Source of the DNA: Promethearchaeia archaeon
Lineage (GTDB): Archaea; Asgardarchaeota; Lokiarchaeia; Sigyniarchaeales; SOKP01
DNA length: 64,000 nt
NCBI GenBank assembly: GCA_029856155.1
Contig: JAHQWL010000088.1
Span: 25,459-89,458, forward strand
Direction of reading: 5' to 3'
Position numbers and translations under genes: made by a program. Shown one piece after another: positions 33,367 to 60,550 of this stretch. The notes beneath the pieces are model-generated. The model searched no databases. It saw nothing but the letters and a program-made list of their open reading frames with translations, and was not told where the DNA came from. How positions within the stretch are numbered: position 1 is the stretch's first letter; every line of letters begins with the position of its first letter.

Positions 33367-34410
33367 TTATTGATGGGATTTAATTAAACTTTCCGCCAAT
33401 TTATAAAAGCTTTCTTCTACATTTTTTCCAGTTAACGCAGAAGTCTCAATATACTCTAAATTAAGTTCATTTGCGATTTTTAGTGCTTCTTCAGATGCTA
33501 TATTTCTTTTAGACATTAAATCTTCCTTATTTCCTAAGATAAAGCCAATCAAAATTTCTTGCGAAGGAACAACATTTTTTTTAATATCTTCGTACCAATT
33601 TTGAATACTTTCAAAAGATTTGCGATTTGTTAAATCAAATATTAAAATTACTGCTTCTAGCCCCATATAAAAATGACGCCTCATAAGCTCGAATTTACTT
33701 TGTCCTGCGATATCCCAAAGAATCAAATTGACATGATCATCTTGTACTTGAATATTTTTTTCTGAAATTGATACACCCAACGTAGGAATATAGGTTTGCA
33801 TAAAGGCATGATCTATAAACCGAAGTATGGTGCTTGTTTTTCCAACTCCTGGATCTCCACATACAACAATTTTATAGTTGAATCCTAATCCTCTTTCTCT
33901 TGGTTTTTTTTCTTCTGGAAAAGCCTCTACTGTAGTGATCTTTTTTTCTTTATTACGTAGGTCATCTAAAATTTCTGAAATTCTAGTTTTCAAATTGGTT
34001 AGTTCAACATAAATTTCATCAGAATTAGCCTTTCTATTCTCTAATTCAATAATTTTTTGAACACTATCAGCAAATGTAGACTCAAGATAATTAATATATT
34101 TATAGAAAATAAGGTCATATGCTTCATTGAATAATACTGTAATTGATGATATTGCCGCACCTCCCCTGCTAGCTTCATTTTCTCGTTCTACATATTTAAT
34201 GATACCTTTTAAATTGAACATTGGAAAAGGAATTATAACTAAAGACTGAGGTATGATTCCTTGATCAGTTGAGAGAATCGTGATTGATTTAATGCTCACT
34301 GACATTCGAATGTCATCTTGTAGATCAACTGGATCCCATAAAAAAGGTTGTGGACCAACTTTTTCGTCCAATAACGTATAAACTATTGAGGTGATTATTT
34401 TTTCAGTCAT
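33367..34410 (-). CDS. uDENN/longin-like domain fused to a Rab-like GTPase
   Basis: N-terminal DEKVGP...PFP...ENEASRGG; C-terminal GDPGVGKT, WDIAGQ, NKED, ETSA. Confidence 0.85.
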   Translation of the reverse strand: MTEKIITSIVYTLLDEKVGPQPFLWDPVDLQDDIRMSVSIKSITILSTDQGIIPQSLVIIPFPMFNLKGIIKYVERENEASRGGAAISSITVLFNEAYDLIFYKYINYLESTFADSVQKIIELENRKANSDEIYVELTNLKTRISEILDDLRNKEKKITTVEAFPEEKKPRERGLGFNYKIVVCGDPGVGKTSTILRFIDHAFMQTYIPTLGVSISEKNIQVQDDHVNLILWDIAGQSKFELMRRHFYMGLEAVILIFDLTNRKSFESIQNWYEDIKKNVVPSQEILIGFILGNKEDLMSKRNIASEEALKIANELNLEYIETSALTGKNVEESFYKLAESLIKSHQ

Positions 34411-34579: not shown

Positions 34580-35623
34580 TTACAAACGTGATTTGTACAA
34601 TAAAGTAGCAATTGTAGAAAAAGCATAATCAACATTTTCTCCTTGTAGTGCAGAAGTTTCTATAAACCCTAAATTTAATTGGCTTGCTAGATTATTTGCC
34701 ATATCAGTTGTTATTATTCTCTGCTCAACTAAGTCGTTTTTATTTCCAATAACAAATCCAGTTAGCATATCTGATCTATTTTTTAATTGAGCGAGGACAT
34801 CAGAATACCACTTTGGAATGCTATTAAAGGTCTCGATTCTAGTTAAATCAAAAACTAAAAAAACCGCGTCAAAACCTCGGTAAAATTGTTGCCTCATTGT
34901 TTCAAATTTGACTTGTCCTCCTATATCCCATAAAGTTAATTGAATTATAGCATCTTCAACCTTAAATATCTTATCTGTTACATGAACTCCTAGAGTTGGT
35001 ACATAAGATCTTCTAAACGCATTATTTGTATATCTTAAGATTAATGAAGTTTTACCTACGGAGGGATCGCCTATTATTATTATTTTAAATTGATAATCTA
35101 TTAAACTTCGGTCTTTATATTGCTGTTCAGGGAATGCCTCACTCTCTTGTTGAGCCATTTCTTGAAGTTTTAATTCTTCCAAAAGAGCAGATATATTAAA
35201 TTCAAGATGTTCAATTAATTTAACGAAATCTTCCCTGGATGCTTTTGATTTTTCTAAATTTATTATTTCTGGTGTAAGATTATTAAAAGGAATAGATAGA
35301 TCATTAATATATTTATAAAAAATTACATCATCTATTTCTTGAAACAACAATACAAGTGCAGATAGACCAATACTTCCTCTTCTTGAAGGATCATCCCATT
35401 TAATGTATTTAACAATTCCCTTCAAATTCTTTGAAGGAAAGGGGAGGATTACTAAAGATTCTGGGATAAGTCCTTCTTCACCCGATAGGATTGTTAATGC
35501 CTTAATGCTTATGTGAATTAAATCCATTTGTGTGAATGTATTGGGTTTCCATGCTACGGGATTTGGTCCCATTTCATCACTCATTTCTATGTATACTATC
35601 CCTTGAATTATTTGACGTTTCAT
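34580..35623 (-). CDS. uDENN/longin-like domain fused to a Rab-like GTPase (paralog of 33367..34410)
   Basis: SDEMGP...PFP...DDPSRRGS; GDPSVGKT, WDIGGQ, NKND, ETSA; same length (347 aa). Confidence 0.85.
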   Translation of the reverse strand: MKRQIIQGIVYIEMSDEMGPNPVAWKPNTFTQMDLIHISIKALTILSGEEGLIPESLVILPFPSKNLKGIVKYIKWDDPSRRGSIGLSALVLLFQEIDDVIFYKYINDLSIPFNNLTPEIINLEKSKASREDFVKLIEHLEFNISALLEELKLQEMAQQESEAFPEQQYKDRSLIDYQFKIIIIGDPSVGKTSLILRYTNNAFRRSYVPTLGVHVTDKIFKVEDAIIQLTLWDIGGQVKFETMRQQFYRGFDAVFLVFDLTRIETFNSIPKWYSDVLAQLKNRSDMLTGFVIGNKNDLVEQRIITTDMANNLASQLNLGFIETSALQGENVDYAFSTIATLLYKSRL

Positions 35624-54175: not shown

Positions 54176-55981
54176 ATGGATTTATTACCTAAAGTATTTA
54201 GAACTGAGGGAAATGTTACTGAATTCGATCCATCCAAGATTTTCGAAAGTATCCTAAAGGAAACCAGAATGAGTGAAGAAAATGCAAAAAATATCACTGA
54301 ATTAGTTGTGAGAAGAATAATTAGCTCTGGCATAAAATTTCTATCAGGACCTCATATAAGAGAAATTGTATGTTCAATACTTTCTGAAGAACATTTTGAA
54401 AATGAACGAAAATTATACACTCGAATTGGAATGCCATTAATGGACTATGAAAAGATTCTTGAAAAAGGTCCAAGTGATAAGCCAAATGAACAGATAAATC
54501 CTGAAAAGATTCATCACTGGGCAGCCGATCGTATAGCTGAAGAATATGCCCATTTAAGAATATTAAATAATGAAGAGTCTAAAGCCCATTTATATGGTGA
54601 TATTCATATTAATGGACTAAATTACTTTGATTCAAGACCATTTAGTCAAGTTTGGGATCCTAGGTTTATTTTAAATGAAGATTTTCCTCCAATAGATAAT
54701 TTAAAAAATATTTACAAGCAAAAACCAGCAAATAATCTTATAGGTGCTTTAAAAAACCTTTCTAAATGGTTAGGAATAACACACAGTGAGTTCTATGGAA
54801 TTCAAGGATTTAATTTGATTAGTACTTTTTTAGCTCCATATGTGTATAAAATATCAGAAGAAAAAATAATGAAAGATCTGCGAGAATTTATTTATGAAAT
54901 TAACCATATTCCAATCATTATTGGACGCAGCATTTCAAAATCATTACTTTCCTCTTCATTTTCTATTCTTGACGCCTTTTTAGAAATCCCTGCCATAAAT
55001 CCTGGCGGAAAAACTGAAAAGGTCTATGGAGATTACCACGAAGAAAGTAAAAGGCTATTAAAGGCTCTTTTTCTTATTTTAAAAGAAGAATATTATAAAA
55101 ATCCTAATTCAATTCCCAATCATCAATCGATTTTAGATAATATATTAATAGATGAAATTAGTACTTTTGTACCAGGTTTTTGGGATGAGCCTGGTATAAT
55201 AAATTCAACCTATTTTATGAACCCTCGTCTAGATTTCTACAAAAAAAAATTAGTTGAGCATATATCGAATAATGGTCATTTTAATTATGGAACTCTTCAA
55301 AACATTACTTTAAACTTGCCTCGTTATTCTTACATGAGTAGAAATGAAGATGAATTTTTAGAATTGCTAAATTCAAAGCTTGATTTGTGTTCGGAAATTT
55401 TATTGAAGAAATTTAAAATAATTGAAAAAAGGATTAATTCAAATCATCTTCCTTTTTGTATAAGTAAAGTTAAGGGGGAGCCTATATTTAATATTAATAA
55501 TCAGAATTTATCAATAAGTATAGTTGGATTAAATGAATCGATTAAACATTTAATAAATTACGAGCTTCATGAGCATTCAGAGGCAATTAATCTAGGTAAA
55601 AAAATTCTAAATAATATATACATTAAATGTAGAGAATTATCTGATAGGGATACTAAACAATACATATTGAGTGAAAATCTTTCAGAAAAAGCGATTCACA
55701 GATTTACAAAATTGGATTTAAAACATTTTCCAAAGCAAATTAAATCATTATCTAATAAGACGGATTATAACTACACTAATTCTATTCATTATAGACACCG
55801 TATTGATGGTAATTTATTAAATATGCTGAAAGATCAAGGAGATTTTCATCAATTTATTCATAATGGTGCAGTTGAGTATATTTCCTTAAATAGTTTAAAA
55901 AAGAATGATTTAGTATTGAGAGATTTTATTGGAATAATTTGTAAGGACTCAAATTTATCATCAATGAAGTTTTATTCTTAA
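54176..55981 (+). CDS. ATP-cone protein homologous to class III ribonucleotide reductase NrdD, lacking the glycyl-radical C-terminus
   Basis: ATP cone FDPSKIFESIL..HIREIV; YTRIGMP, GDIHI, TLNLPR, IVGLNE, YTNSIH, HNGA; ends before the CxxC/RxxGY region. Confidence 0.8.
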   Translation: MDLLPKVFRTEGNVTEFDPSKIFESILKETRMSEENAKNITELVVRRIISSGIKFLSGPHIREIVCSILSEEHFENERKLYTRIGMPLMDYEKILEKGPSDKPNEQINPEKIHHWAADRIAEEYAHLRILNNEESKAHLYGDIHINGLNYFDSRPFSQVWDPRFILNEDFPPIDNLKNIYKQKPANNLIGALKNLSKWLGITHSEFYGIQGFNLISTFLAPYVYKISEEKIMKDLREFIYEINHIPIIIGRSISKSLLSSSFSILDAFLEIPAINPGGKTEKVYGDYHEESKRLLKALFLILKEEYYKNPNSIPNHQSILDNILIDEISTFVPGFWDEPGIINSTYFMNPRLDFYKKKLVEHISNNGHFNYGTLQNITLNLPRYSYMSRNEDEFLELLNSKLDLCSEILLKKFKIIEKRINSNHLPFCISKVKGEPIFNINNQNLSISIVGLNESIKHLINYELHEHSEAINLGKKILNNIYIKCRELSDRDTKQYILSENLSEKAIHRFTKLDLKHFPKQIKSLSNKTDYNYTNSIHYRHRIDGNLLNMLKDQGDFHQFIHNGAVEYISLNSLKKNDLVLRDFIGIICKDSNLSSMKFYS

Positions 55982-56139: not shown

Positions 56140-57603
56140 TTGACAAATACAAAAGCTAATCATAAGAAAGGCAAACCCACCGAAGAAGAAACTTCTGATC
56201 TCAAATCTAATATAATAAAAGCAATTGTATTAAGTATTTTTGATGAGAATGGTCCTAGTCCCCATATCTTTTGGCCTAAAAATTTAGATGAAAGTGCAGG
56301 TCTTTTAATTGCCATGAAAACGATATCTCTCCTTATGGGAGATAGTACATATCAAAATGGAGAAACTACTGAAGGTGTGAATTATTTTGGAATATTGCCA
56401 TTCCCTGATCTGAAATTAAATGGTTTGACTTATTTTTTTCTCATTCCCGATGTAAAAGCTCGTGGTAAAGCTTTAGCAGCTACTATTACTGTATTGATAA
56501 ATGAAAATGACAGAGTATTCTTTTATGAGAATATGAAATACTTGAGAATCATCATAGATAAAACTGCAAACTTAATACAACTCAATAAGGAACATAATGA
56601 AAGAGAAAATATTATTGAAGATTTAAGAGAAGAACTTTTCGAGTTTACTATGGAACTAAAAGATCCGTTTTCAACGAGGAGACAAATAAAAATCTTACTT
56701 ACAGGGTTAGATAAGGCGGGAAAGACTAGCTTTGTGCATGGCATTAGGAGAAAATATTCTGAAATCATCAAGGCTTTACCAACTAAAGGCGTCGAGAGAA
56801 CTGAAGAAAATATTTTTGAAGAACAAAATTCTCTAATCTCAGTATGGGATTTAGGGGGACAAAAAAAATATCGCGAAAGATTCCTGGAGCAAAGTAAAAT
56901 ATATCTATATAATATTGATTTAATGTTTTTCTTCATAGATATTCAAGATGTAGATAGGATACATGAAGCTCTTGACCTGTTTAGGACGATTTTGAACTCT
57001 TTAATAGAATTAGAAGAATTTCCGCCAATTGTTTCATGCGTACATAAATTCGACCCTGACTTGAAAGGATCAAAAGACATATTTAAAAGCTTGGAAATTA
57101 TTGCTGATGGGATCAAAGAGAATTCCGAGAGGTTTTTTATTAAAATTTTCCAAACTAGTATTTTTGATCATTGGAGCCTTATTACGGCATATTCTTATGG
57201 ATTATCACAGTTAAGTACAAATCGTGAACTATTCAGAAATCAATTAAAAAAGTTTGCTAAAAAAACTAATTCAGATGCTATTCTACTATTAAACGAAAAT
57301 GGAATTATTCTATCCAGTTTCTCCAAAACCGATATTTCTGGAAAAGTTTTCGAAATTTCTGCTCCACATTTTCAAAGTTTATATAAGAACTTTAAAGAAT
57401 ACAAATTATTAGAGCAAGATTTTATAGTAACGTCTGGTATTACTGATGAGTCTAAAAAAGTAATCTTCCAAAAAATAAAAGTTGAAAAATATAATTTGTA
57501 TCTACTTCTATTTTTAGAAAAGTCTTCTGAAATTGAGAAAATTGAAAAAAACTTACCAGATTTTTCAAAAAATCTAGTTGACTTAATTCATACATACATA
57601 TAA
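56140..57603 (+). CDS. Folliculin-like uDENN/longin domain + Rag/Arf-like GTPase + roadblock-like domain
   Basis: FDENGPSP..LPFPD..FFLIPDVKARG; GLDKAGKT, PTKG, WDLGGQ, HKFD, TSIFD; ILLLNENGIILS. Confidence 0.85.
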   Translation: MTNTKANHKKGKPTEEETSDLKSNIIKAIVLSIFDENGPSPHIFWPKNLDESAGLLIAMKTISLLMGDSTYQNGETTEGVNYFGILPFPDLKLNGLTYFFLIPDVKARGKALAATITVLINENDRVFFYENMKYLRIIIDKTANLIQLNKEHNERENIIEDLREELFEFTMELKDPFSTRRQIKILLTGLDKAGKTSFVHGIRRKYSEIIKALPTKGVERTEENIFEEQNSLISVWDLGGQKKYRERFLEQSKIYLYNIDLMFFFIDIQDVDRIHEALDLFRTILNSLIELEEFPPIVSCVHKFDPDLKGSKDIFKSLEIIADGIKENSERFFIKIFQTSIFDHWSLITAYSYGLSQLSTNRELFRNQLKKFAKKTNSDAILLLNENGIILSSFSKTDISGKVFEISAPHFQSLYKNFKEYKLLEQDFIVTSGITDESKKVIFQKIKVEKYNLYLLLFLEKSSEIEKIEKNLPDFSKNLVDLIHTYI

Positions 57604-59944: not shown

Positions 59945-60550
59945 ATGGAAAGCAAACCAAGCCTAACTGCATTAGTAAAGAGTCCTTCTAAAGATGGTCA
60001 TATAAGAGAAAGCCATGGGTTCTCTTTAAAAGAGATTAAAGAAGCGGGAAAATCTATTGATCTCTTAAAAAACTCTAATATTAAAATTGATTATTTTAGG
60101 AAATCACTTCATACTGAAAACGTCAAGAGGTTAAAATCTTTAGAATTTCCATCTAAGGAAAAAAAGAAAAAAAAACCTTTTATTAAAAAAGAAAAGAAGA
60201 GAGCGCCATTTAAATCCAAAGAAGAAAAAATTAAAAAAAAACCTGATAAAACAATTGCAAAATCGGTACCAAAACTAGAAAAGAAAGTAAAAGTAAAACC
60301 TGCAAAGAAAGAAAAGGTAAAAATCACCAAAGTAGAAAAAGTAGAAAAATTGCCTAGCCCAGCTACAGGTAAACTTTTAACTGAATTATCTGGATTAGGA
60401 GATGCAACCGCGAAAAAATTCATTGAGCTTGGCGTTACCGACATAGAAGCATTATGCAAAGAGCAACCCGAAGAATTAGCGCCATTAATTAAGGGTGTCT
60501 CTGTAGATAGACTTAAAAAGTGGATTGAGGAAGGAAAAGGGCTAATTTAA
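59945..60550 (+). CDS. Ribosomal protein eL13-like domain + Lys-rich linker + helix-hairpin-helix domain
   Basis: R..HGFSLKEIKEAG..IDYFRKSLHTENV (eL13 pattern); LTELSGLGDATAKKFIELGV..IKGVS (HhH). Confidence 0.7.
   Translation: MESKPSLTALVKSPSKDGHIRESHGFSLKEIKEAGKSIDLLKNSNIKIDYFRKSLHTENVKRLKSLEFPSKEKKKKKPFIKKEKKRAPFKSKEEKIKKKPDKTIAKSVPKLEKKVKVKPAKKEKVKITKVEKVEKLPSPATGKLLTELSGLGDATAKKFIELGVTDIEALCKEQPEELAPLIKGVSVDRLKKWIEEGKGLI

Follow-up and report, generated by a model that had tools for sequence, protein, structure and literature searches.

The gene P0001 lies at positions 56140 to 57603 (+) of a 64,000-nucleotide stretch of DNA from a Promethearchaeia archaeon of the Lokiarchaeia (Sigyniarchaeales; GenBank assembly GCA_029856155.1, contig JAHQWL010000088.1, positions 25,459 to 89,458), referred to below as the window; its G+C content is about 29%. 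The gene, stop codon included, is one unbroken open reading frame (ORF) of 487 codons with a TTG start, and its 487-amino acid (aa) product joins a longin domain, a Rag-like GTPase domain, and a roadblock domain in one chain. Two strings quoted from this product in a preliminary description of the locus, IVLSIFDENGPSP and LTYFFLIPDVKARGKALAATITVLI, are both present in the ORF. A search of a 5.8-billion-protein collection returned 540 homologs; the best 120 of these are 474 to 490 aa long and 74 to 92% identical to P0001, carry Lokiarchaeia or Promethearchaeota as source names, and are usually labeled "ADP-ribosylation factor-like." Because homologs are this numerous and the best 120 agree this closely in length and identity, P0001 is a real, conserved gene. 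An AT-rich spacer of 158 bases lies on its 5′ side and a convergent transglutaminase-like gene on its 3′ side, so that P0001 appears to form its own transcription unit. The first 23 residues (56140..56208, +) are a Lys-rich tail, poorly conserved and variable in alignment, and predicted to be disordered (predicted local distance difference test, pLDDT, below 50).

Residues 180 to 487 place P0001 in the RagGtr family, as a GTPase with its own roadblock domain. The G domain (residues 180 to 359; 56677..57216, +), which also finds PDB 8YL2 and RagA, matches Pfam Gtr1_RagA (PF04670) at E 3e-24 and 86.1 bits against a cutoff of 22, over residues 184 to 396. Its motifs, all on the + strand, are GLDKAGKT (G1, residues 189 to 196; 56704-56727), WDLGGQ (G3, residues 236 to 241; 56845-56862), HKFD (G4, residues 302 to 305; 57043-57054), and TSIFD (G5, residues 339 to 343; 57154-57168); by analogy with RagA and Gtr1, we take HKxD in G4 and TSIxD in G5 to be Rag-type motifs. 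Among solved structures, the closest relatives by sequence are Lokiarchaeota 8YL2 (E 2e-33, residues 152 to 461) and then 8ZLA/9M28, followed by the Arf family and after it by RagA (E 9e-11) and Gtr1, with RagA/Gtr1 matches ranging from E 1e-10 to 1e-8. The C-terminal roadblock domain (residues 360 to 487; 57217..57600, +) is identified by its order of secondary structure and by a two-domain alignment to Rags: in the full-length AlphaFold2 model (mean pLDDT 75.5; predicted template-modeling score, pTM, 0.57), residues 362 to 486 run alpha-beta-beta-alpha-beta-beta-beta-alpha, the roadblock topology. Across both domains taken as a unit, residues 180 to 487 match LokiRagO (8YL2) with Z 22.7 over 269 residues, RagC/Gtr2-numbered chains with Z 20-21, and RagA-numbered chains with Z 17.6-18.7. 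Arf/Arl proteins match the G domain only (Z about 16-17).

An Arf-type G domain was considered and rejected. Pfam Arf does match (E 5e-17), yet Gtr1_RagA outscores it, and the chains whose alignment extends from the G domain through the roadblock are all of the Rag/Gtr kind. The preliminary description had paired an Arf-like P-loop with Rag-like G4/G5 motifs and a roadblock; all of these are in place, and the P-loop is no obstacle to RagGtr membership.

The N-terminal domain (residues 24 to 175, approximately; 56209..56664, +) is, as modeled, a longin of the FLCN/NPRL2/SMCR8-C9orf72 kind. Modeled alone with AlphaFold2 (residues 21 to 178, 68-sequence alignment), it reaches pLDDT 91.4 and pTM 0.88 and forms two beta strands, a helix, three beta strands, and then two helices that continue into the linker. 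Structures were compared with Foldseek and, as a second look, with VIA-align; the two were concordant, and Z values are from VIA-align. The nearest solved structure is 8YQG, the dimeric longin of a Lokiarchaeota Roadblock-Longin protein (Z 19.0). The best eukaryotic matches are Lst4, the yeast FNIP (Z 13.5), and C9orf72 (13.0), followed by FLCN (12.4-12.6; root-mean-square deviation 2.5-2.7 over 131-139 residues) and NPRL2-length chains of GATOR1 (12.2); sequence identity among these longins of eukaryotic GTPase-activating protein (GAP) complexes is highest for FLCN, at 15-16%. Lower matches include DENND1A/B (Z 10.5 and 9.9), SNARE longins such as VAMP7, Sec22b, and Ykt6 (at most 9.3), roadblocks (at most 9.1), and TRAPP longins (at most 8.3). 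The suggestion that residues 25 to 175 form a longin like those of FLCN, SMCR8, and NPRL2 was thus borne out, with Z 12.2-13.5 for the GAP-complex longins. The fold alone does not indicate a GAP, because the best matches include noncatalytic longins (Lst4, C9orf72) and longins of the guanine nucleotide exchange factor (GEF) type (DENND1).

Sequence profiles place this domain near FLCN and outside its family. The Pfam Folliculin profile (PF11704) scores P0001 at 18.3-19.3 bits, under its gathering threshold of 23.3; it matches 21 of 68 family N-domains at E ≤0.1 (best E 8e-7). Of five more P0001-type N-domains that were scanned, four match it as well (17-22.5 bits). The matches of P0001 and P0001-type N-domains span profile positions 49 to about 105, the ARG stretch included. 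Run against PDB sequences, the family profile finds 8YQG significantly (E 2e-23) and SMCR8 second (E 0.2-1.3, GP region only); in such searches with two N-domain alignments, neither FLCN nor NPRL2 appeared at E ≤10. Coiled-coil matches in the N-domain profile searches were discarded as spurious, being drawn by the helical linker. No DENN domain follows the P0001 longin; the G domain and roadblock stand there instead. Because it falls under the Pfam Folliculin threshold and lacks a DENN domain, P0001 is a relative of the FLCN longin and not a member of the FLCN family.

Two motifs carry the comparison with FLCN further. The first, G38-P39 (56251..56256, +), forms the turn between beta1 and beta2; Gly38 is found in 115 of 116 aligned family rows and Pro39 in 110. 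The second is Arg108, a candidate arginine finger, which the AlphaFold2 model places in the loop between beta4 and beta5; its codon is CGT at 56461..56463 (+), where the preliminary description had located it, and its column holds Arg in 86 of 113 family rows. The combination of a GP and an Arg finger is reported to characterize GAP longins, as well as some Asgard longins, and to be absent from adaptin, TRAPP, and DENND longins (Traffic 2025, PMC12290439). The family GP aligns to G68-P69 of SMCR8 (profile match, E 0.2) and, weakly, to G15-P16 of FLCN (E 0.098). In human FLCN (PDB 6ULG, chain L), FCELHGP spans residues 10 to 16, the GP being G15-P16, and the 12-residue segment that holds the Arg spans 154 to 165, the Arg being R164; these strings and this residue number agree with those given in the preliminary description. 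An hhalign comparison of the family profile with FLCN 154 to 212 aligns the FLIPDVKARGKAL-AATITVLINEND stretch and sets R108 on R164 (E 0.003; probability 9.9%), the equivalence that had been proposed; P0001 and FLCN share F-F-x-x-D-x-x-A-R-G around the Arg.

When 1.84 billion cluster representatives were searched exhaustively with the N-domain, only 118 clusters came back; these were aligned with the paralogs in the window and fall into five types. Type A, that of P0001, has the order longin, Rag-type G domain, roadblock in about 460-490 aa, and every cluster carries the Arg, in the form D-x-x-A-R-G or, once, V-R-G. The RG motif is thus kept in all P0001-type ortholog clusters, as a check proposed in the preliminary description had asked of Asgard homologs, and the Arg is invariant across these orthologs down to about 40% identity. 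Type B, that of the paralog P0124, shares this layout at about 500-512 aa, with a 20-25-aa insertion after strand 2, and lacks the Arg. Type C couples the longin to a Ras-type G domain (about 335-360 aa; Arg in 30 of 32). Type D has an N-terminal domain followed by the longin (about 287 aa), the layout of 8YQG, with the Arg mostly present. Type E consists of two tandem longins, the Arg being absent from the first and present in the second. That one kind of longin is joined to GTPases of two different families suggests that the GP/Arg longin acts on an attached or paired G domain.

Individual members of these types add observations of their own. P0161 (336 aa) and P0242 (395 aa) are tandem GP longins, the first longin without Arg and the second with A-R-G; judged by their motifs, they look like covalent catalytic/noncatalytic longin pairs. 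P0135 and P0136, P0001-type cluster representatives from outside the window, have a decayed G3 (WNFRDP and WNIKEN) and keep the Arg, and one of them has a GKK P-loop; retention of the Arg despite the decayed G3 hints that the Arg may be able to serve another chain.

The same findings bear on the main rival to a catalytic role, in which the longin would be a dimerization, platform, or GEF-like regulatory module and the Arg-Gly would be structural or would bind a ligand or partner. Its premise is that most longin and roadblock domains are modules of this sort (TRAPP, Mon1-Ccz1, DENN, Ragulator, MglB), and it draws on the presence of the Rab GEFs DENND1A/B and of noncatalytic Lst4 and C9orf72 among the top structural matches, on the dimeric, Arg-less longin of the closest solved relative, 8YQG, on the roughly one-quarter of family rows that lack the Arg, and on the failure of the full-length model to dock the longin confidently on its own G domain (pTM 0.57). 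The reported restriction of the GP and Arg pair to GAP-type longins (PMC12290439) argues the other way, as do the invariance of the Arg among P0001-type orthologs and its alignment with the catalytic R164 of FLCN. On balance, we regard a noncatalytic module as unlikely.

The window holds four members of the GP-longin family. Besides P0001, these are P0124 and two tandem 347-aa fusions of a GP/Arg longin to a Ras-type GTPase without a roadblock (33367-34410 and 34580-35623, both −; Pfam Ras E 4.5e-47 for the first). P0124 (46690..48192, −; 500 aa) has the three domains of P0001, keeps the GP, lacks Arg at the finger column, and carries the insertion of about 20-25 aa after beta2. Between P0124 and P0001 lies P0122 (50785..51765, +; 326 aa), a plain Rag-like GTPase with a C-terminal domain and no longin (Gtr1_RagA E 1.8e-26). 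Also between P0124 and P0001, 51974-53056 (+) encodes a 360-aa protein with a zinc-ribbon-like CxxC...CxxC N terminus and a long Lys/Glu-rich stretch; its C-terminal region reads as roadblock-like, with no Pfam match at E 0.01.

At least 17 other genomes of the genus share the order P0124-type gene, plain Rag gene, P0001-type gene, with the trio confined to 4-14 kb of a single contig; the order also recurs in two genomes of another family, whose orthologs are only about 42% identical. Exceptions occur: one genome has a truncated P0001 ortholog, in one genome of the order 80 kb separate the P0001- and P0124-type genes, and P0001 is dispensable in a complete same-genus genome that has a P0124 ortholog but none of P0001. 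P0124 is a candidate noncatalytic partner of P0001.

Such a partnership could be obligate. P0001 and P0124 would then form a fixed heterodimer through their longins and roadblocks, and the one Arg would act in trans, serving one of the two G domains, comparable to FLCN:FNIP on RagA:RagC. The shared domains of P0124, with GP kept and Arg gone, parallel the Arg-less partners FNIP, NPRL3, and C9orf72 of FLCN, NPRL2, and SMCR8 (PMC12290439). The linkage of the trio within and beyond the genus, the two P0001-type clusters that keep the Arg despite a decayed G3 of their own, and the roadblock-longin and tandem-longin proteins that carry the Arg without any G domain point the same way. Set against it, P0001 and P0124 are on opposite strands and therefore not one operon, a complete genome from this genus contains the P0124 ortholog alone, and the pair is 80 kb apart in another genome.

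Structure prediction for P0001 with P0124 lends this arrangement weak support. The interaction prediction score from aligned errors (ipSAE) was 0.43 (runs 0.47, 0.43, and 0.37) versus 0.00 for the best control. Among 80 solved complexes, only 7 made the mark with a score of 0.60 or less, and both of the mismatched pairs that passed did so in this range. At least 90% of contacts were consistent between runs, and partner pLDDT was at least 76; the prediction reports no interface and does not separate heterodimer from homodimer. The pass may also reflect memory or likeness, because Rag heterodimers have already been solved. We hold the fixed heterodimer, acting only in trans, as a tentative possibility.

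We favor, at somewhat better than even confidence, a broader reading in which P0001 is a RagGtr GTPase whose GAP-type longin acts as a built-in, gated off-switch within a dimer. P0001 would most likely dimerize through its roadblock domain, and probably through its longin as well, pairing with a second copy of P0001 or with the linked paralog P0124, which has no Arg. One conformation of this dimer would set Arg108, together with the GP turn, at the nucleotide pocket in a Rag-like G domain, where the Arg would speed GTP hydrolysis, as FLCN R164 does on RagC and in the manner of dimerization-activated GTPases. In the latter—Roco Roc-COR, MnmE, and SRP/SR—a residue contributed from inside the GTPase dimer sets off hydrolysis, with no separate GAP. 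Their resemblance to P0001 is at the level of mechanism only; the folds and catalytic elements are unrelated.

Several results weigh against the favored reading. The Folliculin match is subthreshold; the top structural matches include noncatalytic Lst4 and C9orf72 and the GEF-type DENND1 (Z 10.5); the placement of R108 on R164 has an hhalign probability of only 9.9%, on a very short target; and a complete genome of the same genus lacks P0001. AlphaFold2 does not fix the longin against its own G domain (monomer pTM 0.57). A permanently attached GAP would also need gating, of which this analysis gave no sign.

The monomer model also bears on a strictly cis mechanism, in which the longin would fold back onto the G domain of its own chain and a single polypeptide would be a complete timer. 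Such an arrangement fits the covalent connection and short linker—beta1 of the G domain begins at residue 183, soon after the final longin helix stops near 171—and fits the fusion of the same longin to Ras-type GTPases that have no roadblock. The model, however, gives no confident cis arrangement; some Arg-bearing longins have no G domain, and others belong to P0001-type proteins whose G motifs have decayed; and known longin GAPs act on another chain. We therefore consider a purely cis timer improbable. The earlier proposal of a self-contained GAP-GTPase switch stands in part: longin, Rag-like GTPase, and roadblock do share one polypeptide, whereas the monomer shows no confident docking of longin and G domain. 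Within the favored reading, we lean toward an Arg that acts across the dimer rather than in cis, because of the Arg longins without a G domain, the clusters that keep the Arg beside a decayed G domain, the low monomer pTM, and the habit of eukaryotic longin GAPs of acting on another chain.

The layout of P0001 and its motif have each been published. Fusions of longins to GTPases and of roadblocks to GTPases were already known in Lokiarchaeum in 2016 (Klinger et al., cited by PMC4917890), and the longin-GTPase-roadblock layout in Asgard archaea is described by Tran et al. 2024 (PMC10933270), whose proteins share both layout and lineage (Lokiarchaeia) with P0001. The excerpted texts of these two papers give the layout and AlphaFold2 dimers, with no mention there of an FLCN-type GP/Arg signature, of an Arg-bearing/Arg-less paralog pair, or of its linkage. 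The motif is found in Asgard proteins described as containing a Folliculin/SMCR8 longin domain, with a GP and an Arg finger in the same structural places as in P0001, and the partner of these longins was posed as a question, ArfR or Rag/Gtr (PMC12290439). That report mentions no GTPase fusion; here the GTPase is covalently attached, of RagGtr type in P0001 and of Ras type in paralogs. The novelty claimed in the preliminary description was therefore overstated. P0001 adds the combination, a GP/Arg longin and a RagGtr GTPase (Ras-type in paralogs) in one chain.

The human FLCN longin in FLCN-FNIP2, a GAP for RagC/D (6NZD, 6ULG, 8DHB), shares with P0001 the longin fold, a GP after beta1, an Arg between beta4 and beta5, and an associated Rag-type GTPase. 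P0001 differs in having neither the DENN domain nor the large insertion and in scoring under the Pfam Folliculin threshold. FLCN is, moreover, a separate protein that needs FNIP, whereas the P0001 longin, a putative GAP, is part of the GTPase chain itself. Unlike P0001, the solved Loki Rags (8YL2, 8ZLA/9M28) have no longin, and the solved longin 8YQG has no Arg and is not fused to a GTPase. Of these structures, released in 2025-2026, 8YL2 ("LokiRagO") is a homotetramer, 8ZLA/9M28 ("LokiRagM") a monomer, and 8YQG dimeric; a search of the available literature found no paper on 8YL2, 8ZLA, 9M28, or 8YQG.

The fusion points to the GTPases on which archaeal GP/Arg longins act, Rag-type here and Ras-type in the paralogs, and makes P0001 a one-protein test system for whether the pairing of Rag and longin GAP predates eukaryotes. 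The conserved Arg-bearing/Arg-less paralog pair is, likewise, a concrete candidate for the origin of catalytic/noncatalytic longin heterodimers. A more far-reaching scheme would make P0001, P0124, and P0122 an archaeal forerunner of the eukaryotic Rag/longin-GAP module, with a P0001:P0124 heterodimer standing in two chains for FLCN:FNIP on RagA:RagC and with the separate eukaryotic GAP complexes arising by fission of such fusions; we regard this as doubtful. Public databases already contain the gene, which is widespread in Lokiarchaeia, and the value of P0001 lies in the testable pairing rather than in a new kind of system.

Among 201 genomes sampled across the phylum, a single-sequence query found the N-domain in 46, including 40 of 40 in its own family, 3 of 3 in a second family of the order, and 2 of 5 in one other family; its not being found elsewhere in the sample with this query is not evidence of absence there. 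Two further genes of the window were annotated in passing. Directly upstream of P0001, the product of 54176-55981 (+), 601 aa long, contains an ATP cone and matches anaerobic ribonucleotide reductase (NRDD) at E 4e-56. The 201-aa product of 59945-60550 (+) scores exactly the Pfam cutoff for ribosomal protein L13e (24.9 bits, E 2e-5) and has a C-terminal helix-hairpin-helix domain.

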